A stretch of 64,000 nt of DNA from an uncultured Clostridia bacterium (GTDB lineage: Bacteria; Bacillota; Clostridia; TANB77; CAG-508): assembly GCA_947628835.1 (NCBI GenBank), contig CANRBL010000004.1, positions 214 to 64,213 on the forward strand, read 5' to 3'. Positions 27,647 through 61,114 of the stretch are shown here, piece by piece. Each line of letters begins with the position of its first letter. Within the stretch, counting starts at the first letter, position 1. Both the position numbers and the translations under genes were made by a program. The notes below the pieces were generated by a model. It saw only the letters and a program-made list of their open reading frames with translations. It did not search any database and had not been told where the DNA came from.

Positions 27647-28843
27647 TTATTGCTTTACATACCAATATCCTGATTGATAACCATTTGCAGGATACTCATT
27701 TTCATTTGTACTTGTTACTGTTCCACATAAGTTTGTCCCTTTAGAATAAGTCGACGAGCTTAAAACAGTACAAACATCTACATTCCAAGTGTTCCAATGC
27801 GAAGAATTATTATTATAAACTTTACAACACTTATACGGTGACAAAGCAGCATACTTTGTTCCATCCCATAAACGTGCATATACTGTTTGTCCATTTTGTA
27901 TTCCTGTTACTTCACTTCCATTTTGCCACTCTCCTGATGTTCCTCCTATTTGATATTGTATGCTCCCTGTTATTCCTGCTCCTTTATTTATTGTTACACT
28001 TGCTGTATGTTCTGTTGCATTCCAACTTACTTCTCCAAATTCTATATTTCCTTCTGCTACTATTACTTTTCCTGTTCTTTTTGATAATATTTTTGTTGTT
28101 GATATTTTGTTACTATTTGTTGCCACTATTTTTATGTCATATATTTTATCCTGTTGCAATCCTTCAAATGTATAGGTTGTTGGATTTTCTGTAACTCCTG
28201 TTTGTGTCCTTGCTAATTTATATTCATTATCCCCTTGTTCTTTATAATAATAATTAAATGTTCCTTTTTCATCTATATTACTATATTTTACACTTGCTGT
28301 TATTTGATTTGATGTACTTGTTAATTCTACATCTATTCTTGGTCCTGCTTCACTTTGTTTTGCTACATATTCACTTCCTATCACATAATATTTTGAAAAT
28401 TCATCTTCTATACTCTCATCTATATTTTCTATTTTATTTACTTCTATTTCATATACATATCCACCTATTGTAAATGTTACATATCCTTGTTCTATAAATA
28501 TCGCATCAACATTACTTTCATCATCTTCCATTAATGTTACTCCATCTTCATCTTGACCTTTTAATGCATCTACATATTCTCTTAATGTTACTTTTCCGGT
28601 ATAATTATAATCATTTGATGCCGTTGGTATTAATAAATTATTTAATTCTAAATTTAATCTTTCTAATATTGCTATATACATATTTGCACTACTTGATTTT
28701 CTTGCTTTACTTACTATTCCATTGCTTCCTGATAATATTTGTATTGATACTCCTGCTAATATTAATAACACCAATATTGTTATTACTAATGCTATTAAGG
28801 TTATTCCTTTATTCTCTTTTATTTTTTTCATTTTTAATCTCAT
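27647..28843 (-). CDS. Orphan prepilin-like protein with large extracellular domain
   Basis: The N-terminus MRLKMKKIKENKG/ITLIALVITILVLLILAGVSI resembles a type IV prepilin leader plus hydrophobic helix, but position +5 is Ala, not Glu. GGAGG RBS. The C-terminal part is beta-rich, with a Cys-rich end. Confidence 0.6.
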   Translation of the reverse strand: MRLKMKKIKENKGITLIALVITILVLLILAGVSIQILSGSNGIVSKARKSSSANMYIAILERLNLELNNLLIPTASNDYNYTGKVTLREYVDALKGQDEDGVTLMEDDESNVDAIFIEQGYVTFTIGGYVYEIEVNKIENIDESIEDEFSKYYVIGSEYVAKQSEAGPRIDVELTSTSNQITASVKYSNIDEKGTFNYYYKEQGDNEYKLARTQTGVTENPTTYTFEGLQQDKIYDIKIVATNSNKISTTKILSKRTGKVIVAEGNIEFGEVSWNATEHTASVTINKGAGITGSIQYQIGGTSGEWQNGSEVTGIQNGQTVYARLWDGTKYAALSPYKCCKVYNNNSSHWNTWNVDVCTVLSSSTYSKGTNLCGTVTSTNENEYPANGYQSGYWYVKQ

Positions 28844-50550: not shown

Positions 50551-51786
50551 TTATTTTACTTCTCTCATTTGCTTTATCATCATATCTCCAAATATTGCAT
50601 AACCTTTTGTTGGATCATTTACTAATACATTTGTAATTGCTCCTATAAATTTTCCATTTTGAATAATTGGAGCTCCACTCATTCCTTGTATTATTCCTCC
50701 TGTTTTTTCTAATAATTCTTTGTCTGTTATTTTTACTAGCATACTTTTATTATCATAATTATTTGTTACATATATTTTTTCTATTTCAACTTCATATTCT
50801 TGTGGCTTATTCCCATCAAGACTGGCTAGTATTACGGCTTTTCCTTCTTTTATTTCTTCTCTTAGTGCTACATCTAATTCTTTTGCACTATTTATATTTA
50901 ATGATGTAAAATTGCTCACATTACCATATATTCCAAATTCCGTATTTTTATATATTTGTCCTATATTTTTCTGATTTTCAACTGTTCCTTGTATTTTTCC
51001 GGGATTTCCTTTTTCGCCTTTTATTATAGATAACACTTTTGTTGTTAAAAATTCACCACTTGATATTTTTATTAATTCTCCTGTATCTATATCTGTTATT
51101 CCATGACCTAATGCTCCAAACATTTGCGTTTTTGGCTCATAATATGTTACAGTTCCAACTCCTGCTGCACTATCTCGTACCCATAATCCTATTTTATATT
51201 CATCTACATTTGTTTTAGTTGGCTTTATACTACATTCTAATGTTTGACCATCATGTAAATATTTAATATCTACATTTTCTCCCTTTGATGAATTTACTAT
51301 TTGTACTAAATCTTTTGTACTTGCTATATTTATATTGTCTACTGATATTATTGTATCTCCTTCTTTTATTCCTGAGTTTTCATATGGTTTATAACTGATA
51401 CTGTCTTCTCCTTGTATTTCAGACATTCCGACTACCAATACTCCATTTGTATATAATTTTATTCCCGCTATTGTACCAACTGGTATTACTGTTGTTTTTG
51501 GTATTATACTTACATTTACATCTTTAACATCTACAGTATTAAATAGATTTACTTTTAATGTTGTTTTTCCTACTCCATCTAAATCTTTTGTTTGTATTTC
51601 ACTTGATGTTAATACGGTTTCATATTCATTTTTAATTTTCGAAATTTTTATTCCAAAAATTGTATTTATATTTATATCTTCTCCTTGAAATACTATTATA
51701 TTATTAGGAATTGATGATATTGCCAAAACATATGTGTATATAATTAATAAAATTGCAATAATAAAAATTTTTTTAATTATTTTCAT
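50551..51786 (-). CDS. spoIVB: Stage IV sporulation signalling serine peptidase SpoIVB (S55)
   Basis: N-terminal TM, PDZ domain (GIKEGDTIISVDN), and S55 core with GALGHGITD and IIQGMSGAPII. Confidence 0.85.
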   Translation of the reverse strand: MKIIKKIFIIAILLIIYTYVLAISSIPNNIIVFQGEDININTIFGIKISKIKNEYETVLTSSEIQTKDLDGVGKTTLKVNLFNTVDVKDVNVSIIPKTTVIPVGTIAGIKLYTNGVLVVGMSEIQGEDSISYKPYENSGIKEGDTIISVDNINIASTKDLVQIVNSSKGENVDIKYLHDGQTLECSIKPTKTNVDEYKIGLWVRDSAAGVGTVTYYEPKTQMFGALGHGITDIDTGELIKISSGEFLTTKVLSIIKGEKGNPGKIQGTVENQKNIGQIYKNTEFGIYGNVSNFTSLNINSAKELDVALREEIKEGKAVILASLDGNKPQEYEVEIEKIYVTNNYDNKSMLVKITDKELLEKTGGIIQGMSGAPIIQNGKFIGAITNVLVNDPTKGYAIFGDMMIKQMREVK

Positions 51787-51979: not shown

Positions 51980-53641
51980 TTACTTTTTATAAATTGCTCC
52001 AGAATCATTTTTGTATAATAATTCCATATTTGAAACTAAATTTTCTACATATTCTTCTGAAAAATTAGCATTATAAAAATATATAATGTAATTTACTTTT
52101 TCTAAATTAATTGAATTAGGAACATAATCATAACCCATTAATTTACTAGCCCAACTTCTTTGATAATAATTTCCTATTATAGAAACAACATCTGTATAAT
52201 CTATTATTTCTCTTGACTTTTTCAATAATTGTTTTTCCTCTTTTGTATATATAATTCCATAACTTTTTTTATTTAATATTATATTAACATTTTCATAATA
52301 TACATTACTTAATGATAATATTAAACTTAGTAATACTATAAGCATTGCGTTTATATATATATTATGTTTAGTTATTAATTTATCTATCCATTTACCAATA
52401 ATTATAAAACATATTCCCCATAATATAAACAAATTTTTTATTAAATAGTATAAAGATATTTTACCAAAATATACAACTATTGCCAAAATTATTATGTATA
52501 GCACTATATCTACAAATACATAATATATATATTGATTTTTTTGTTTTTCCTTTATAAATAAGTATATAGATAATGGAAGAATAATTATAAAATTGGAATA
52601 TATATCTCTATAAATAGGTCCTTCAACTAATATCCCAACAATTAATTCGTTTACTTTCTCTTTTTCATAAAATATATGATACTGTAAACCACATATTAAT
52701 GGAATTATAATTGTAACAATTCCTAATATTATAAATCTTGAATTTACATATTTATTATTTTTTTCTTTATTATTGTACATTCCAAATAATATTTCCGCTC
52801 CATATATGAAAGGAACAAATACATAATAAGAAAAAAATAATGAAAAATTTAAAATAAATAGACATATTGTATTTATTTTAAAATCAAAATCCTTATTACT
52901 GTAATTCTGAAAAAAAATAAAAATTGTATTTATTACAAGTATGCTTATTGTTAAATATGAAAAGCCATAACATATACTATTAAATGCATACCCTAATGTA
53001 TATAATATTGTCAATATCATTGCTATTATTCTGCTTGTCTTGTTATGGCAAAATTTTAATAATATGGTATTCATTGTTAGTGCTATTAATACTAGTATTA
53101 ATATATCAAATATTATAAATATTTGATATAAATCAAAATCATCTATGTTTCCACTAAAAATTTTCATTAGTAAACCAGTATTAATATATGCCATTGGCAT
53201 AAAACCTTTAGCTTCCTCTTTTAGCTCATCTGATTTTGAAAATTGAACGGCTGTATTATAATGTGCAGTTGCATCTATACTAGCATATTTTATATTTAAA
53301 TCTGTACTATAATTTAAAATACAAATACTAATTACAATAATTGTAATCAATATTTTTTGTACTATTTCTTCTTTGTTTAAATAAAATTTTTGATATTTTT
53401 TATCTTTTACAATTTTATATATTAGTATCCCTATAAATATAAAGTTAATTATACTTAAATTGGTAAAGTTTATCTTCACTTTTGTTTCATACATTATATA
53501 ACAAATTATAGTGTTATATCCTAAAATAATTACAATAGCTGTTATAATACATTCTAATATATTTAATTTTTTGTCAGATTTTTTTACTACTATAAATATG
53601 AACATTAATATTAATGATGTCATTATAAATGCTATTTTCAT
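51980..53641 (-). CDS. Large polytopic integral membrane protein, unknown function
   Basis: 553 aa with more than 10 hydrophobic helices and a C-terminal soluble part. GT-C / polymerase-like topology, but I recognise no diagnostic motif. Confidence 0.5.
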   Translation of the reverse strand: MKIAFIMTSLILMFIFIVVKKSDKKLNILECIITAIVIILGYNTIICYIMYETKVKINFTNLSIINFIFIGILIYKIVKDKKYQKFYLNKEEIVQKILITIIVISICILNYSTDLNIKYASIDATAHYNTAVQFSKSDELKEEAKGFMPMAYINTGLLMKIFSGNIDDFDLYQIFIIFDILILVLIALTMNTILLKFCHNKTSRIIAMILTILYTLGYAFNSICYGFSYLTISILVINTIFIFFQNYSNKDFDFKINTICLFILNFSLFFSYYVFVPFIYGAEILFGMYNNKEKNNKYVNSRFIILGIVTIIIPLICGLQYHIFYEKEKVNELIVGILVEGPIYRDIYSNFIIILPLSIYLFIKEKQKNQYIYYVFVDIVLYIIILAIVVYFGKISLYYLIKNLFILWGICFIIIGKWIDKLITKHNIYINAMLIVLLSLILSLSNVYYENVNIILNKKSYGIIYTKEEKQLLKKSREIIDYTDVVSIIGNYYQRSWASKLMGYDYVPNSINLEKVNYIIYFYNANFSEEYVENLVSNMELLYKNDSGAIYKK

Positions 53642-53735
53642 TTTTAATCACATTCCTTCCTAAGGCACAAATACAAAATTAAAATTTGACACAGCAAAAA
53701 TTGTAATTATTTTTCCACTTTTTTCCTCTTGAACT

Positions 53736-55199
53736 TTAATATGTAACCAAATACATTATATCTTTATCAAATATGACTTTTTGATTATTTTCTAAATTGT
53801 TCTCCTCATATTTAAAATACATATCATAAATTTCATCTTCCATTACTATTTGTTCTATATCTTTTTTTAACCATAATTTGAAAAAAGCCGAATTTATTGT
53901 CATTTTTAAATTACTTGATTTTTTACAAATTGGGTTTTTATCTTGATGGTTTATGATAAACATATATGGTTCTTTTGCAATATACGCAAATTTTGTAATT
54001 GTAATTCCAGATGTTTCTTCATAATCTTTTATCTGTATATTAATCTCTTCCATTATTCTTTTATCAATCAACTGTCCTTTTCTGTAATAATAGCAATATG
54101 AAATTATACTTATTGTTTGTACTACAAAATAAATTATTAATACTCCTAATAATAATTTACTAAATTGAATTTTGACATTTATAAGATTTGAACTCCATAA
54201 AAATATGTAAATATACCCTATCATTGCTCCAATTGTAAAGAATATTCTTCCATATAACCTATATGTGCTATATGGTACAGTTAGACATATTATAAGAGAT
54301 GTTATTATAGATATAAATATTATAACTATTATTTTCATTAATATTGTTTTCTTTTTTTCTACTTTGGAATAATATATTATTCCAAGTATAAAAAAAATAA
54401 AAATTATTTGTATATATTTTGGAAATAATCCTATACTTTCAAATATTATACTATATAAATTTAAGAATATTGTTTTGATACTTTGTATTATATTTAATGA
54501 TAATCTACTTGTCATATTTCCTTTTGTATATATTGCTATAAATATTAAATTTAATGTTATTGCACTACATAAAACAATTAATGCTTGAAAACAATTTCTT
54601 CTTCTATCTGCTTTATTGTAATTTTTATTATTTATAACTTGTAATACTAGATAATAACTTATAAATACACCTATATTTCCTTGATAACAAAAAGTAGCTA
54701 TTAACACACATATTACAGCTTTTATTATATAATTTTTATTTCTATTATACAGATTATTTGCTCCTACAATATATAATAATATACTTGTTGCTATTACTGG
54801 AAATTCTATAAATTGAAGATTATCTACATACATAAAATTAAATATTGTTATATATGATATTAATATTATAATTACATCTTCAATTTTATTTTTTGGGCTC
54901 TTTAATTTTTTTATTGCACCATATAAATACATAACTGTCAAACACATAATTATTATTCCTATAATATACAATCCTATTATTGCATAATCTATATCTACTC
55001 CTTGTATTAAATATAGCAATATACCAGAACAAATTCTTCCATCTTGGAAGAATTTGCTTTGTGTATATTGTTTATATCCATTATTTACCATTTCCATTGT
55101 ATCTATTGTATAATGAGGATATAAAAAGTTATGAGTTACAATTAATGAAAAGATTAGTATTAATAATATTATTCTTAACCTTTTTATATTTTTTTTCAT
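53736..55199 (-). CDS. Large polytopic integral membrane protein, possibly GtrII-like glucosyltransferase (GT-C)
   Basis: 487 aa with more than 10 helices. The first loop, HYTIDTMEMVNNGYKQYTQSKFFQDGRICSG, resembles the D...GR loop of Glucos_trans_II-type proteins. This assignment is weak. Confidence 0.45.
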   Translation of the reverse strand: MKKNIKRLRIILLILIFSLIVTHNFLYPHYTIDTMEMVNNGYKQYTQSKFFQDGRICSGILLYLIQGVDIDYAIIGLYIIGIIIMCLTVMYLYGAIKKLKSPKNKIEDVIIILISYITIFNFMYVDNLQFIEFPVIATSILLYIVGANNLYNRNKNYIIKAVICVLIATFCYQGNIGVFISYYLVLQVINNKNYNKADRRRNCFQALIVLCSAITLNLIFIAIYTKGNMTSRLSLNIIQSIKTIFLNLYSIIFESIGLFPKYIQIIFIFFILGIIYYSKVEKKKTILMKIIVIIFISIITSLIICLTVPYSTYRLYGRIFFTIGAMIGYIYIFLWSSNLINVKIQFSKLLLGVLIIYFVVQTISIISYCYYYRKGQLIDKRIMEEINIQIKDYEETSGITITKFAYIAKEPYMFIINHQDKNPICKKSSNLKMTINSAFFKLWLKKDIEQIVMEDEIYDMYFKYEENNLENNQKVIFDKDIMYLVTY

Positions 55200-55296: not shown

Positions 55297-56850
55297 TCAT
55301 CTGTTTGTCCGTCCTGTAGCACTGTCTTTTCCTAAATTAATTACATATTCAAAACTATTTTCACTGGATGTATTATTCGTATTTTGATTAATTATGCAAT
55401 CATAACAGCCTGACTCTGTTTGTGGATAATAATATACTATCTGTCCACTATTATTTGTTCCTCCATTTTTTCTCTCAAAATCTATATTTAGAAATCCTTG
55501 ACAATTGTTAAGATTAATTGAACCACCAGTTAAATTTTTATCAGTAATTTTATGATATTTATTGCCATCTTTTATATAAATCAAATTTTTGTCAATATAT
55601 TCTTCATTTTGATTATTTGTAACTACTGCATAACCATTATACATTTTTCCACCTATTTGCATTCCTTGAACAAAGCTCATAACTGATACATTGTTTAAAA
55701 GTTTATACCAATCTGTTTCACTTAAATTAGGCATTACAAAATCTGCATTATTAAACATTGCATTGTAATTGGCTATTGCTAATTGCAAATTATGTTCTAT
55801 TGCATATCTTATAACTGCTAGTCTATGCTCATTAAAGTTTGAAGATGATAACTCTGGATCTCCTTCAAAAATGTTTACATTTTCATTAAAATCTGCTCTA
55901 TCCGTAATTGGGTTACCTTCAACATCACAAGCTTTATTAAATGTCAACCCCGCTAAATTCAGTTCATTTAAAACCTTGCTCGAAAATTCTTGAGCTTTTT
56001 CATAATATTCTATGGCTTTTGTATTGCTACTAAAATAACTATAATTATTATGCTTATTATCTATGTATTTTTTTCCATTTAACATTGTAAATGCAATACT
56101 TCCATCCCAATAATATTTGACCCCATTTTCTTTTATATATGAACATGATGTTGGGTTATATGGTTGTATATCTGTTCCATCATATATATTTTCTGTTAGC
56201 GCATTTTCCTCTACAATGGGTATATCTCTATATGTAATATTACCTGATGGATCTTTTTGCACGTTATTAGGATCTATAAAATATCCTGATTCATTTCTAT
56301 ATTTACCATTAACAATTCCTTGAATAGTTATATAATTATCTAATGTATATGTTATTGTAAAATCATCATCTAGTTTAGGATATCCCTTATATCTACAACT
56401 ATAATATACATATGACTTTGTTCCATATATTTCTGTACCATTTGCAGCTGAAGTACTAGTATCTGTTTGCTCTATGTTTGCTAAATCATTATTAAAAGGA
56501 GAATATATATAGTATCCATCATATAATGTAAATACTATTGCTGGTACATAATCTTTTACTAAATCAGCATTATAACCACTTAATCCAAAATTACGTGCTA
56601 CTGATGCAAAAAATGTATTTGCAGATGCTTCTATATCTCTTACTTTCGAAGCAGATATATCTGATGTACTACTATTTACAGTATTAAGTTTAAATGCTTT
56701 CACCGCATCATATGTTGCAGTTATTAATTTTGAATCATATGTACTTTGTAAATTCAATGTTTTGGTTTGAAATTTCGTGTATTCTGATAATACAATTGAT
56801 ATTGGTAATATGATTATTATAAATATAATTGCTAAACTTTGTAATTTCAT
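55297..56850 (-). CDS. Large (517 aa) filament-cluster protein with TadE/TadG-like N-terminal helix
   Basis: The N-terminus MKLQSLAIIFIIIILPISIVLSEY resembles the TadE-type hydrophobic segment (..lP..l...e.). Last gene of the cluster. Confidence 0.45.
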   Translation of the reverse strand: MKLQSLAIIFIIIILPISIVLSEYTKFQTKTLNLQSTYDSKLITATYDAVKAFKLNTVNSSTSDISASKVRDIEASANTFFASVARNFGLSGYNADLVKDYVPAIVFTLYDGYYIYSPFNNDLANIEQTDTSTSAANGTEIYGTKSYVYYSCRYKGYPKLDDDFTITYTLDNYITIQGIVNGKYRNESGYFIDPNNVQKDPSGNITYRDIPIVEENALTENIYDGTDIQPYNPTSCSYIKENGVKYYWDGSIAFTMLNGKKYIDNKHNNYSYFSSNTKAIEYYEKAQEFSSKVLNELNLAGLTFNKACDVEGNPITDRADFNENVNIFEGDPELSSSNFNEHRLAVIRYAIEHNLQLAIANYNAMFNNADFVMPNLSETDWYKLLNNVSVMSFVQGMQIGGKMYNGYAVVTNNQNEEYIDKNLIYIKDGNKYHKITDKNLTGGSINLNNCQGFLNIDFERKNGGTNNSGQIVYYYPQTESGCYDCIINQNTNNTSSENSFEYVINLGKDSATGRTNR

Positions 56851-56975: not shown

Positions 56976-57500
56976 TTAAACTCCATTTACAGCAACTATT
57001 CCTGTTGATGATGCTGAAACTTGATATGTATCACTTCCTGCTACTTTATAAAAGAAATTCTTTAATTGTTGAGATATGGTAGAACTAGTATTTTTTACAC
57101 TAACTACTACTCTATCTCCTTCTTTTAAATTCATTATTCCATCATTCTTTTCTAATTCATCCCATATTTGAGTTGTATATTTTGAATAATATACATTTTC
57201 TCCTATTTTTGTACTCTCTGCTACTGTTGCTTTCTTTCCTGGATTTTCATCTAATACTTGTATTTCCATTTCTACATCATATGCATTACCTGTTGATGAA
57301 AGTGTTTGCACAAAAGTTTCATAATTTTCTTCTGTTAACTTTCCTGTTAATCTAATATTATCTACAAATTCATTTGTTGCTGTTTGTATTGATACCTGTG
57401 ATATATCATCTGTTCTGTCAGAAATTGCCATCAATGGAAAAACAAACATTAATACTGCTGCTAAAAATATCGCAATTATAGTTATTGTTGTATCTCCCAT
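56976..57500 (-). CDS. TadE-like pseudopilin-type protein (174 aa)
   Basis: N-terminus MGDTTITIIAIFLAAVLMFVFPLMAISD, followed by a soluble beta-rich domain. Confidence 0.45.
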   Translation of the reverse strand: MGDTTITIIAIFLAAVLMFVFPLMAISDRTDDISQVSIQTATNEFVDNIRLTGKLTEENYETFVQTLSSTGNAYDVEMEIQVLDENPGKKATVAESTKIGENVYYSKYTTQIWDELEKNDGIMNLKEGDRVVVSVKNTSSTISQQLKNFFYKVAGSDTYQVSASSTGIVAVNGV

Positions 57501-57524: not shown

Positions 57525-57872
57525 TTACGTTTCTGTATATGTAATTATACGTCGTTTATTTTTATTTGAATCATATAAATTTTCATTTGTTCCTGCTTCT
57601 GATGATATATAATTTTCTGTACCATCATAATCTATCATATAAATATCTTCTGCATAAACTACTCCCATACTTTCTGTAAATTTTTTTCCTTCTAGAATTT
57701 CATACAATCCTTTTTTATTATTAATATATATTCCACTCTTTCCAGAAGCCTGACTATTATTATCATATGAATAAATATCATATTTCTCATATTGTTTTCT
57801 TTCGTCATTGGTATACGGAGTTAATAATGCATCAATTAATTTAGTAGCTCTCTCCTGTGTTGCAATTCCCAT
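57525..57872 (-). CDS. Soluble 115-aa protein of the filament cluster (possibly the displaced C-terminal part of the upstream gene)
   Basis: No SD before ATG 57872. The frame stays open 26 codons upstream and overlaps the end of 57928..58242 in the +1 frame. Confidence 0.4.
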   Translation of the reverse strand: MGIATQERATKLIDALLTPYTNDERKQYEKYDIYSYDNNSQASGKSGIYINNKKGLYEILEGKKFTESMGVVYAEDIYMIDYDGTENYISSEAGTNENLYDSNKNKRRIITYTET

Positions 57873-57927
57873 AGCTGCTAAATTAATAACATTTGTATTT
57901 ACCCATTGCCATTCATATGTAATTTTG

Positions 57928-58242
57928 TTATCGACCTTGCTTCCGTACTCTCATATATTGAGCTACTAATTTTGTTGGTTGTGGATCTTTCCATTTAAAT
58001 ACAATGATATAATTTTCTTTAAATGCTCTATATAGCATTGGCACTATAGTTTCGACCCCAACAGTTCGCTCTTTATCTGCTGACTGCTCTATATATGAAT
58101 AATCATTTTCTCTATCTCTTAACTGCAAAATAGAATCTGTAGTCGCCCTTACTTTACCAAAAAAGTGGATACTTATGGAAAGTGCTAATATAAATATTAA
58201 TACTCCAAAAGCAATATGTAAAGCTTCTGTAACATTTTCCAT
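57928..58242 (-). CDS. MEN-type pilin-like protein P5 (104 aa)
   Basis: MENVTEALHIAFGVLIFILALSISIHFF N-terminus. GGAGGGG RBS. Confidence 0.5.
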   Translation of the reverse strand: MENVTEALHIAFGVLIFILALSISIHFFGKVRATTDSILQLRDRENDYSYIEQSADKERTVGVETIVPMLYRAFKENYIIVFKWKDPQPTKLVAQYMRVRKQGR

Positions 58243-58259
58243 AATATCCCCTCCTTACT

Positions 58260-58727
58260 TTATTGAGCCTTTTTTATAATACATTTATTTACATATCCAG
58301 AATCTGAATCATATTCAAATGATACACTATATGCTTTTCCTGTAAGAGCAGCTCCAACTTGTTTTATATCTGTTGCTTTACCATCTGCAGCAACAGTGCT
58401 ACTCGCTTTATTCCAATTTTTATTAGCACCATCAGCTGTTACTATAGTATTATCTAATGATATTTCTATTTGTTTTGATTTATCTTCTGTATTTGTTAAA
58501 TTGTTTGAAACTATTGCTTCCAATAATGCATTTACATTTGCTCCTTTTACTTTATTTCCTGTATATTGTATAAATTTACTATTAAATGTATCTACAGCTA
58601 ACCCATCTACTGAACTTGTATCTGTTGCCCCTTTCGCATTTTGAAATACTATTATACCTAATGAAATAATTAAAATTGATAATAAAATTGCTCCTGCAAT
58701 TATTAATGCTTTTGATGCATTTTCCAT
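58260..58727 (-). CDS. MEN-type pilin-like protein P4 (candidate major subunit, tandem copy B)
   Basis: MENASKALIIAGAILLSILIISLGIIVF. GGAGGAAAAA RBS. The first 52 aa are identical to P3. Confidence 0.6.
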   Translation of the reverse strand: MENASKALIIAGAILLSILIISLGIIVFQNAKGATDTSSVDGLAVDTFNSKFIQYTGNKVKGANVNALLEAIVSNNLTNTEDKSKQIEISLDNTIVTADGANKNWNKASSTVAADGKATDIKQVGAALTGKAYSVSFEYDSDSGYVNKCIIKKAQ

Positions 58728-58752
58728 AAATTTTTCCTCCTCTCATTCATTA

Positions 58753-59208
58753 CTAATTTGCATTGCCAATTGTACATGTATCTATATAACCAGAATCTGA
58801 ATCAAATGTAAAGGATACACTATAAGCCTTACCAGTTTGCGCACTACCACACTCCTTAATATTTTTTACTCTCTTTTTATCTGGCTTTGAAAAAGAGCCA
58901 CTACTACCACTTGGATTAGTCCAATCACTAGCACTAATTGTTACTTGAATCATTTTAGATTCATCTTCTGTATTTGTTAAATTATTCGCAACTATTGATT
59001 GTAATAATGCATTTACATTTGCTCCTTTTACTTTATTCCCTGTATATTGCGTAAATTTACTATTAAATGTATCTACAGCTAATCCATCTACTGAACTTGT
59101 ATCTGTTGCCCCTTTCGCATTTTGAAATACTATTATACCTAATGAGATAATTAAAATTGATAATAAAATTGCTCCTGCAATTATTAATGCTTTTGATGCA
59201 TTCTCCAT
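58753..59208 (-). CDS. MEN-type pilin-like protein P3 (candidate major subunit, tandem copy A)
   Basis: MENASKALIIAGAILLSILIISLGIIVF. GGAGGAAATAA RBS. Confidence 0.6.
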   Translation of the reverse strand: MENASKALIIAGAILLSILIISLGIIVFQNAKGATDTSSVDGLAVDTFNSKFTQYTGNKVKGANVNALLQSIVANNLTNTEDESKMIQVTISASDWTNPSGSSGSFSKPDKKRVKNIKECGSAQTGKAYSVSFTFDSDSGYIDTCTIGNAN

Positions 59209-59279
59209 AATTATTTCCTCCTTTTTTACTTTAGTTCTTTATAAAAATATTAATAACGTTTTTTATACTGATAATACTT

Positions 59280-59711
59280 TTACTTAGTTATTTGTTCAAA
59301 ATACATGTACTTTACTTTGTTTGTTTTATCATGATATTCCATTTGCGTACATTTGAATTTTATTGAACCATAATATTGCACAAAATCTGATATTCCTCCA
59401 TTGTATAGACTTTCCATATCATAAGTATTATCATCGTCCATCATATGTACATTTATTTTAATTGAATTTTTATCATTTTCAATATATTTATTGTTATTAT
59501 CTAATTGTATTTCATTTTTTTTATTATTATCAATAGCTTTATTTATAATTGTTGCAACGTCTACTCCTGAAACTTCTTTTTGATAATAATATTCATATTC
59601 TAAATTTTCTTTTTTTGCTGTATTATATTTAATTTTATAATTATTATACACGAGCCACATTGATATGACAATAAATATTATAAAAATAAAAAATATTAAT
59701 AATTTTTTCAT
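59280..59711 (-). CDS. Pilin-core paralogue with a different (MKKLLIFF...) N-terminal anchor
   Basis: Shares the core helix (GVDVATIINKAIDNNKKN versus GANVNALLQSIVANNLTN) and the C-terminal strand pair (YHDKTNKVKYMYFEQ versus YDENTGRITEMYFEF in P1). Confidence 0.45.
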   Translation of the reverse strand: MKKLLIFFIFIIFIVISMWLVYNNYKIKYNTAKKENLEYEYYYQKEVSGVDVATIINKAIDNNKKNEIQLDNNNKYIENDKNSIKINVHMMDDDNTYDMESLYNGGISDFVQYYGSIKFKCTQMEYHDKTNKVKYMYFEQITK

Positions 59712-59786
59712 TCTATCCTCTTATATTTTATCATATATTTGCTTATTTTTCAAGTTACGACAATATATTTATATTAAATTTTTGTT

Positions 59787-60284
59787 TCACTTTTTAGTAC
59801 AAGTAACTAAATATACTTGTTTGGTTATTTCACTAATTTTTACTTGACACGAGTAATTATCTAATTTTTTATTATCATTAGGTTTGGAATCTAGTTCATT
59901 TAGTTCATTCTGTATTAATGATAGGTTATTAACATCTTTTTCTATGTATTGACTTGAACCTGATTTTTTCAATATTACAGCAATATATGTCGTTTCTTGG
60001 TTACCTCGAAGGTTTGAAACAGCCACATTTCCAAAATCATATGTATCATTACTTTCTTTTGCACGATTTGCTAATGTTACCACATCATATATTGTTAAAT
60101 CCTCTCTACCGTCATAAGCAGTAAATTGACTATTAAATTCTTCTAATTGTTGTTTTGCTTGTTCATCATATATTCTAGCAGTATTAGAACCAAATGTGAA
60201 TATTAGGTAAACAAACAAAGATAAAACCATTATACCAATTAATACACCTGCTGCCATAATTAAAGCTTTTGAAGCATTCTCCAT
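59787..60284 (-). CDS. MEN-type pilin-like protein P2 (165 aa)
   Basis: MENASKALIMAAGVLIGIMVLSLFVYLIF, then EEFNSQFTAYDG. RBS GGAAAGGAAAC. Confidence 0.55.
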   Translation of the reverse strand: MENASKALIMAAGVLIGIMVLSLFVYLIFTFGSNTARIYDEQAKQQLEEFNSQFTAYDGREDLTIYDVVTLANRAKESNDTYDFGNVAVSNLRGNQETTYIAVILKKSGSSQYIEKDVNNLSLIQNELNELDSKPNDNKKLDNYSCQVKISEITKQVYLVTCTKK

Positions 60285-60322
60285 ATTTGTTTCCTTTCCA
60301 TTGTATTTACATATTTTATAAT

Positions 60323-61114
60323 TTACTGAATTTTTCCTGTAAATTCAAAATACATTTCTGTAATTCTTCCTGTATTTTCATCATAACTTACTACTTGTCC
60401 ATTAAATAATCCTTTTTTCAATTGCATAAATTCATAATATGTTTTTACGTCATCATATATAGAATTATTATTGTTGTACCCATTACTATTAACAATTAAA
60501 TTATTATAGTCATTACCAACATTTGAAGCTAGCTTAGGACAAATTTGTTTAAATTTTTCTAGTGCAAATTGTTTTTTTTCTTTATCTTCATTAGGATTAT
60601 TATTATATTGAAATATTGATGTGATATTTGATGCTAATTGCTGTATAGAATTTTTTGAATACCAGCTATTTAAATTTTCAATTTTTCCCATTATTTTATC
60701 GTCAACAACATTTTTCGTATCACTTTGTTCATATTCGCTATCTAGAATCAATCTATTTATCTCTGGATCAAAAGCAAATTCATCTTGTTTATTATTAAAG
60801 TTAATCTTTATTGTTAATGGTGTATATGCTATATATTTTCCTTCATATCCAATATCTGAATCAGCAGATGATTTTCTTTTATTATAATCTACCACCTTAT
60901 TTACTAAACTTAATAAATCGTTCCCTCTTAAATTTTCTGTAGCATAACTACCATATTCTTCATTAAATTTTACAACTTGCTCTTGTTGTGTTGAACTTGT
61001 ATTTTCGTTATAATATTTTGATATTCTATTAAAGGCAATTACTAAAAGTGAAACTACTACTATTGCAAATAATACACCTGCTGCCATTAATAAAGCTTTT
61101 GTTGCATTTTCCAT
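60323..61114 (-). CDS. MEN-type pilin-like protein P1 (263 aa)
   Basis: MENATKALLMAAGVLFAIVVVSLLVIAF, then VKFNEEYGSY and GNDLLSLVNKVVDYN. Confidence 0.55.
   Translation of the reverse strand: MENATKALLMAAGVLFAIVVVSLLVIAFNRISKYYNENTSSTQQEQVVKFNEEYGSYATENLRGNDLLSLVNKVVDYNKRKSSADSDIGYEGKYIAYTPLTIKINFNNKQDEFAFDPEINRLILDSEYEQSDTKNVVDDKIMGKIENLNSWYSKNSIQQLASNITSIFQYNNNPNEDKEKKQFALEKFKQICPKLASNVGNDYNNLIVNSNGYNNNNSIYDDVKTYYEFMQLKKGLFNGQVVSYDENTGRITEMYFEFTGKIQ

Follow-up and report, generated by a model that had tools for sequence, protein, structure and literature searches.

The window analysed here is a 64-kb stretch of contig CANRBL010000004.1 from an uncultured Clostridia bacterium, and all coordinates given below are positions in it. 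On the minus strand, between positions 57928 and 61114, it carries five open reading frames (ORFs) whose products begin with Met-Glu-Asn (MEN) and read as the pilin-like proteins of a Tad-type pilus locus. The class A protein (60323-61114, 263 residues) starts MENATKAL. The class B protein (59787-60284, 165 residues) and the two copies of the class C protein (copy 1, 58753-59208, 151 residues; copy 2, 58260-58727, 155 residues) start MENASKAL, and the class D protein starts MENVTEAL. The two class C copies are 70% identical, and the five ORFs fall into four paralogue classes, of which class C is duplicated. The ORF list confirms an earlier note on this DNA, which had reported these five starts and about 22 hydrophobic residues behind each of them; the uncharged stretch measures about 22-26 residues.

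The same note had counted five paralogues in this range. Five MEN ORFs are indeed present, but the fifth is the 5' part of a frameshifted gene, and the range also holds an ORF of another type at 59280-59711. The class D gene (57525-58242, minus strand) is split into an ORF of 104 residues (57928-58242) and one of 115 residues (57525-57872). The 104-residue ORF aligns only to the first 85 residues of a 206-residue class D orthologue, while the 115-residue ORF carries the C-terminal motif of that orthologue and has no ribosome-binding site. Because the two matches are complementary and the second ORF lacks a ribosome-binding site, both are read as one frameshifted class D gene, either a pseudogene or the product of an assembly error.

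The MEN codons are the translated start of these proteins. In all five ORFs the MEN ATG is the earliest possible start, with an in-frame stop 6-63 nucleotides upstream. Three of the five genes have a strong GGAGG ribosome-binding site, which reads AAGGAGG upstream of class C copy 1, and another has the weaker GGAAAGGAAA; inspection of all five starts found no recognisable site upstream of the class A gene. First-possible starts together with ribosome-binding sites therefore make MEN the translated N-terminus and not an artefact of ORF calling. The same holds across 84 sources, namely the window and 83 related loci fetched for comparison, where 316 of 332 motif-bearing ORFs lack an upstream in-frame start. 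Many of the remaining 16 have additional residues that resemble the translation of a ribosome-binding site (e.g., KEGGK, IKEEFI).

The N-terminus is shared by a very large family. A search with the 155-residue class C protein in clusters at 90% identity returned 7,142 relatives at E<=1e-3; the best 120 of these all start with MENASKAL, and no Pfam domain or informative name is attached to the relatives. An exhaustive profile search built on the N-terminal ~95 residues of the five MEN proteins and run against 1.84 billion representatives, a scan of the kind that the earlier note had proposed, returned 5,746 clusters (50% identity) at E<=1e-3 and 2,925 at E<=1e-10. In 150 of the best 150 clusters the alignment starts at residue 1 of the target, and among the sequences newly fetched from them 147 of 148 start with MEN and one with MDN. 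The MEN motif is thus real and far beyond chance. All 80 genome matches are metagenome-assembled genomes (MAGs) of uncultured Clostridia from the guts of humans, rabbits, mice, ruminants and chickens. Nothing in these results links the family to Archaea.

Conservation was compared within each class across about 80 related genomes. Met1, Asn3 and Ala7 are kept in 100% of sequences in every class, Glu2 in 97-100%, Ala4 in 88-100% and Leu8 in 93-100%. The only replacement seen for Glu2 is Asp (1-3% per class), as in a class B orthologue that starts MDNAAKAL (L077, 7454-7939), and so it is the acidic character that is conserved. Ser, Thr, Ala or Val occupies position 5. Classes A-C have Lys at position 6, where class D has Asp or Glu (89%); class D has a Lys at position 9 instead (67%). 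In class C, residues 1-4 and 6-8 are 100% conserved. Summed over residues 1-9, the side chains have a net charge of 0, which drops to -1 in class D, and Glu2 of the precursor is the sole conserved acidic residue of the MEN N-terminus. The codons for residues 2-8 vary synonymously, with GAA in 217 cases and GAG in 103, AAT in 275 and AAC in 49, and all four Ala codons in use at position 7. The constraint therefore acts on the protein, and an RNA-level cause of the conserved 5' end was ruled out on the same ground.

Behind the first eight residues conservation falls away steeply. Mean pairwise identity within a class is 78-98% over residues 1-8, 45-63% over residues 9-28 and ~26-34% over the remainder, and the four classes are otherwise ~25% identical to each other. 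Counted from Ala7, the median uncharged stretch in the family is 25-28 residues, and the region C-terminal to the N-terminal helix is net negative. A common downstream core had also been proposed. Its first element, F-N-x-x-[FY]-x-x-Y, is common to three classes and missing from the MENVTEAL class D, and its second, G-x-[DN]-[VL]-x-x-L, is only partly shared.

An AlphaFold model of the 155-residue class C protein, built on a 124-sequence alignment, reached a predicted local distance difference test (pLDDT) score of 85. In it, a helix that is weakened near residue 35 spans residues 2-53 and is followed by a strand, a second helix at 62-78 and three more strands. The outline of this predicted fold is that of a type IV pilin. 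When the five MEN proteins and their neighbours were scanned against Pfam and NCBIfam, all matches were at chance level, among them one to the archaeal family DUF7186 at E=0.15. In particular, the MEN proteins have no Flp or TadE match in Pfam and no G/xxxxEY motif (a slash marks a cleavage site here and below), and a profile search of the family against PDB sequences found nothing.

The locus itself has been described. Kim et al. (Nat Commun 2024;15:10726; PMC11680825) reported a "pilus gene cluster exclusively conserved in TANB77", with 10-14 genes, which occurs in 122 of 129 species of this uncultured order of gut Clostridia and hardly at all outside it. Its first five proteins are 927 (358 residues, CpaB), 928 (231 residues, TadZ), 929 (280 residues, CpaE), 930 (640 residues, TadA/CpaF with one membrane helix) and 931 (693 residues), which by structure is TadC in its first half and TadB in its second (PMC11680825). 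The pilin-like proteins are 932 (165 residues), 933 (170 residues), 934 (143 residues, with a predicted signal peptide), 935 (146 residues), 936 (237 residues), 937 (178 residues) and 938 (621 residues), the last of which has a TadE/PilV-like N-terminal quarter and is the protein that was assayed on dendritic cells (PMC11680825). For proteins 932-937 neither sequence nor structure gave an assignment, and they were called "pilin-like" from context, promoters and topology (PMC11680825).

The window and its orthologous loci match all twelve genes in Table 1 of that paper in order, size and topology, and the window locus is a member of the published TANB77 cluster. Judged from sequence, the five ORFs are pilin-like proteins 932 (class A, by position), 933 (class B), 935 (class C, twice) and 936 (class D) of Kim et al. 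(2024). The locus and the "pilin-like" label are thus already known; what is new is the invariant N-terminus, together with the division into paralogue classes and the processing question. Neither 'prepilin' nor 'N-terminal' appears as a word anywhere in the paper, which gives no account of the invariant MEN-A-x-x-A-L start, the paralogue classes, processing or the missing peptidase (PMC11680825). A literature search for the motif itself or for leaderless Tad pilins found nothing, and no later paper was found that takes up the N-terminus or the processing of TANB77 pilins.

The operon has a constant build, its order being seen in 70-84 of the 84 sources. It opens with a CpaB-like protein, two ParA-like proteins, a 650-residue ATPase with its own N-terminal membrane helix and a 690-residue membrane protein. 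MEN A, MEN B, a 143-residue protein starting MKK, MEN C in one or two copies and MEN D follow, and the operon ends with a 177-residue protein starting MGD and a large protein starting MK[IL]Q. The first gene product matches pilus_cpaB (9.2e-7) and SAF (0.0025), and one ParA-like protein matches CbiA (2e-4), all below cut-off; a profile search of the CpaB-like protein against PDB sequences found nothing. A promoter scan of the operon gave 95 promoter-like sites against 75 expected, which is uninformative in DNA of 25% GC, and a scan for a terminator on its coding strand found none.

The CpaF/TadA-like extension ATPase (protein 930) is represented in the window by its C-terminal part (63343-64000, minus strand), with the frame open to the window edge. 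A full-length orthologue of 655 residues from a related locus, L001, matches CpaF in the PDB at 1.8e-10. This orthologue scores 29.4 bits against Pfam T2SSE (cut-off 24.9), and its best NCBIfam match, the TadA family, is far below the cut-off. The ATPase ends in KKRGRKPK in the window (63343-63400), and K[KR]RGRKPK occurs in 39 of 64 distinct tails. Both this AT-hook-like tail and the N-terminal membrane helix are unusual for CpaF/TadA, and the two features could reflect contact with DNA. The polytopic platform protein (931; 61179-63252, minus strand), a fused TadC/TadB according to PMC11680825, is frameshifted in the window into ORFs of 434 and 259 residues. Alignment with the 695-residue orthologue of L001 (74% identity) places residues 3-433 in one reading frame and residues 434-692 in the one after it, and the split falls exactly at residue 433/434 of the fused orthologues of 693-695 residues. 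Similar splits occur in other MAG loci, such as L079, and assembly errors are therefore likely. Single-sequence and profile searches with the platform protein gave no Pfam or PDB sequence match.

Three further proteins of the cluster do not start with MEN. The 143-residue protein 934 (59280-59711, minus strand), which has MKK followed by a hydrophobic segment, is present in 81 loci and has a weak match to ComGD (1.6e-4, below cut-off). The 937-type pilin-like protein (56976-57500, minus strand; 174 residues) begins MGDTTITIIAIF. Its Met1, Asp3 and Pro22 are invariant, and its AlphaFold model (pLDDT 76) has a helix at 2-52 and a mixed head with a sheet. Gly2 of this protein was considered as a cleavage site and ruled out, since Ser, Glu, Asp and Gln are found at that position as well. 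Counted from Met1, Pro22 coincides in position with the helix-breaking proline that type IVa pilins conserve, a register that would fit use of the 937-type protein without a leader. The 938-type pilin-like protein (55297-56850, minus strand; 517 residues) begins MKLQSLAIIF, and proteins of this type are large, with variable surface-type domains, e.g., Flg_new.

The window beyond the cluster carries spoIVB, murC and scpA and reads as chromosome of a spore-forming Firmicute. spoIVB itself (Peptidase_S55 and PDZ; 50551-51786, minus strand) lies directly downstream of the pilus cluster in 56 related loci. We treated this adjacency as synteny inherited within one order and not as evidence of a functional link to spoIVB. 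Between the cluster and spoIVB (51980-55199, minus strand) are a GtrII-like glucosyltransferase of 487 residues (Pfam 6e-26) and a 553-residue membrane protein with 12 helices and without a family match, homologues of which stand directly after the 937-type gene in L023, L047, L071 and L080. As far as their sequences indicate, these two proteins might glycosylate pilins or the cell wall.

An A24 prepilin peptidase was found neither in the cluster, nor in the 64-kb window, nor within 10 kb of the cluster in the 83 loci. The scans covered 1.49 Mb in all and used first the motif G[GMALSF]GD[VAIFLM]K and then GxGD in proteins with at least four membrane helices. The first pattern gave two matches, both of which are ribosomal protein L3 and were rejected; the second gave zero ORFs in the window and the 83 loci. 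Some proteins of the same loci have canonical-looking prepilin N-termini. One is a large protein of the window (27647-28843, minus strand) with the N-terminus MRLKMKKIKENKG/ITLIALVITILVLLILAG, and eight more are found in other loci, including L001 (16270-17802), L018 (10360-11748), L028, L030, L056 and L059. These proteins have ~400-600 residues and the sequence KG/ITLIALVITIIVLLILAG (KG/ITLIALV...), with Ala in place of Glu at +5. Their leaders run from 3 to ~35 residues and differ in sequence. Their C-terminal parts are fn3- or Laminin_G-like, and their N_methyl matches are sub-threshold (E 0.04-0.9).

We read the MEN proteins as pilin-type subunits with a non-canonical N-terminus, in agreement with the earlier note. 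The ATPase and platform genes are adjacent, the model has a helix and a head, conservation declines from the N-terminus as in pilins, and the published annotation is that of a pilus (PMC11680825). Several paralogues also share one N-terminus, as major and minor pilins do. The more specific proposition, that these are Tad-type (type IVc-like) pilus subunits used as translated, with the leader not removed and Glu2 as the buried acid, has in our judgement about an even chance of being right. The analysis demonstrates the motif and its invariance, the genomic context, the modelled helix and sheet and the lack of a peptidase gene nearby; filament formation, topology and, above all, the absence of processing are what we infer here.

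Under this proposition, residues 1-8 and the following ~22-26 uncharged residues would form a helix of the alpha1N type. The helix would anchor the subunit in the membrane with the N-terminus in the cytoplasm and the head outside, and would later pack in the filament core. This topology is favoured because the region after the helix is net negative, and the DeepTMHMM result of Kim et al. agrees with it (PMC11680825). Extracting the subunits and polymerising them into a helical filament would fall to the membrane-anchored CpaF-like ATPase, by way of the fused TadC/TadB platform. In canonical pili, Glu5 pairs with the N-terminal amine (PMC10191384). In the MEN proteins Glu2, and Asp3 in the 937 type, would take over the role of Glu5 in neutralising charge in the hydrophobic core and in docking on the neighbouring subunit. 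Methionine aminopeptidase does not remove Met1 before Glu, and Met1 would be retained for this reason. Its amine and Glu2 would form a neutral pair, or Glu2 would pair with the amine of a neighbour or with Lys6. Class C is probably the major subunit, because it is the shortest, has the strongest ribosome-binding sites, is often duplicated and has the most conserved N-terminus. The minor subunits are probably classes A, B and D together with the 937 and 938 proteins, and class D, whose charges at positions 6 and 9 are swapped, may be the one that initiates or caps the filament.

Two ways of reading the MEN N-terminus were put forward at the outset: cleavage as a class III signal peptide, and use without a leader with Glu2 in the place of Glu5. 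The class III leader is defined as a hydrophilic stretch of variable length with Gly or Ala as its last residue; behind it come 20-25 mainly hydrophobic residues, with Glu5 'often, but not always' present (PMC10191384). With its invariant Ala7, MENASKA/L formally fits this definition, in which Glu5 is dispensable, and a hydrophobic stretch is present, with a median of 25-28 uncharged residues that are helical in the model. In the cleavage reading, which we regard as possible if doubtful, a very short leader would be cut after Ala7 (MENASKA/LIIAG...) by an A24 peptidase encoded elsewhere. The mature protein would start at Leu8 and have no Glu5, like many archaeal pilins; position 5 counted from Leu8 is in fact Gly, Ala or Phe. 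In favour of this reading, Ala7 is conserved in 100% and Leu8 in 93-100% of sequences in all classes. In substrates of the archaeal peptidases PibD, FlaK and EppA, [KR][GAS] precedes the hydrophobic core, and Lys6-Ala7 of classes A-C conforms to this rule. A peptidase gene outside the cluster has precedent in Gram-positive Tad loci, and the canonical-looking prepilins of the same genomes make it probable that a peptidase is present.

The pattern of conservation runs the other way. Glu, Asn and Ala at -6, -5 and -4 equal -1 in their invariance, and the variable positions are -2 and -3, which is the reverse of what is expected at a peptidase site. Although MENASKA/L formally fits the class III definition, it is invariant at residues 1-4, not net positive and constant in length across the 5,746 clusters, as judged from the best 150. 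Class D has Asp or Glu at -2, directly before Ala7, and no peptidase gene lies within 10 kb in the 83 loci. Between the two readings we lean towards the leaderless one. A leader fixed in length and sequence with a net charge of 0 or -1 argues for it, as does the acid that precedes Ala7 in class D. Cleavage would leave a mature protein without any acidic residue. In the 937-type protein, which is built alike, Asp3 stands near the N-terminus and there is no conserved Gly or Ala site. The canonical-looking prepilins of the same lineage have variable leaders, and there is no polytopic GxGD protein near the cluster.

It is improbable that the MEN N-terminus is an ordinary Sec signal peptide or anchor, whether of proteins secreted after cleavage by signal peptidase I or of proteins that stay in the membrane by a single pass and assist the machinery but build no filament. 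In favour of this reading, class C offers a candidate signal peptidase I site, a moderately conserved Ala31-x-Gly33 behind its hydrophobic residues; Foldseek found no pilin, and no filament has been observed so far. Signal peptides evolve fast, yet residues 1-28 are the best-conserved part of these proteins. Their n-region has a net charge of 0 or -1 and is not positive, a site of the Ala-x-Ala type is absent from classes A, B and D, and the model helix runs to residue 53, unbroken at the putative site. Paralogues with one N-terminus behind an ATPase and a platform gene are, moreover, arranged as pilins are. We also hold it unlikely that the filament is a short pseudopilus that does not reach the surface, acting as piston or conduit in secretion or DNA transport much as in type II secretion or Com systems, instead of an adhesive pilus: a Gram-positive wall must be crossed, the AT-hook-like tail of the ATPase hints at DNA contact and the four or five subunit types with two larger ones resemble pseudopilin sets, but no secretin-independent cargo or competence genes were seen adjoining the cluster, the variable surface-type domains of the 938 proteins suit an exposed tip, and the question of the N-terminus would be left untouched.

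Several points weigh against leaderless pilus subunits. The prepilin peptidase is counted among the four components that all type IV filament machines, bacterial and archaeal, have in common. Every type IV filament studied so far needs it (PMC10191384; bioRxiv 10.64898/2026.04.22.720090). Ala7 is 100% invariant, MENASKA/L formally fits the class III definition, and the canonical-looking prepilins in the same genomes mean that a peptidase is probably encoded elsewhere there. The mature N-terminus discussed here is a prediction from sequence and models. Foldseek comparison of both AlphaFold models with the PDB gave no match at E<=0.001, in line with the failure of structural assignment in PMC11680825. 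The top matches were SnoaL-like folds and kinesin, with template modelling (TM) scores <=0.3, and as modelled the heads of the MEN and 937-type proteins would be either new or too small to match. The five MEN proteins do not match Pfam N_methyl even at E<=1. With neither a pilin among the Foldseek matches nor an N_methyl match, it is therefore the outline of the model that points to a pilin fold. No pilus has so far been observed on these uncultured bacteria.

Among known filament systems, the genes 932-938 of the TANB77 cluster are the same system, with the same gene order, sizes, single N-terminal membrane helix and CpaB/TadZ/CpaE/TadA/TadC-TadB machinery. The Tad/Flp systems of Aggregatibacter, Caulobacter and Bifidobacterium have in common with it a CpaF/TadA ATPase, CpaB-like and ParA-like (TadZ/CpaE) proteins and, by the structural homology reported in PMC11680825, the TadB/TadC platform halves. 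They differ in that the MEN cluster has no TadV in or near it, its ATPase has its own membrane helix and its platform halves are fused. Flp pilins have ~50-80 residues and a G/xxxxEY site that is cut by TadV, whereas the MEN subunits have 130-310 residues with a globular head and no such site. The MEN system would work like a Tad pilus; its subunits fall outside the Flp pilin definition and agree in part with that of type IV pilins.

Canonical type IV pilins, i.e., those of T4a pili, Com systems and the pseudopilins of type II secretion, share with the MEN proteins an N-terminal helix of ~53 residues with a small head, a peak of conservation at the N-terminus, one major and several minor paralogues and an acid near the N-terminus. 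Canonical pilins have a basic leader of variable length, Gly at -1, Phe or Met at +1, Glu at +5 and often N-methylation (PMC10191384), whereas the MEN proteins have either no leader or a fixed neutral one of seven residues, and their Glu is at translated position 2. Archaeal pilins and archaellins, the substrates of PibD, FlaK and EppA, likewise allow short leaders, Lys-Ala as in classes A-C and a dispensable Glu5. Their leaders are variable and basic, in contrast to the invariant, neutral or acidic MEN leader with Asp or Glu at -2 in class D. Class D may also have a parallel in GspK and PilK, the tip minor pilins that lack Glu5: it too deviates in its N-terminal charge, but keeps Glu2. The capping subunit has a special status among pilins (PMC10191384).

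The widest claim is that this is the first branch of type IV filaments with leaderless subunits and no prepilin peptidase, in which Met1-Glu2 is the assembly signal, Glu2 provides the pairing and class D is the initiator or cap. We put the likelihood of this claim as a whole a little short of even. If it is true, a large natural family of subunits that does without a peptidase, 5,746 clusters at 50% identity, would change the definition of type IV filament machines, and it would offer a minimal model in which the recognition of pilins and their extraction from the membrane could be studied. The MEN proteins escape pilin finders (PilFind, N_methyl, IPR012902), and the pilus is thus invisible to standard annotation. 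The cluster is of medical interest, and the mature N-terminus matters both for recombinant production of its proteins and for their detection in metaproteomes.

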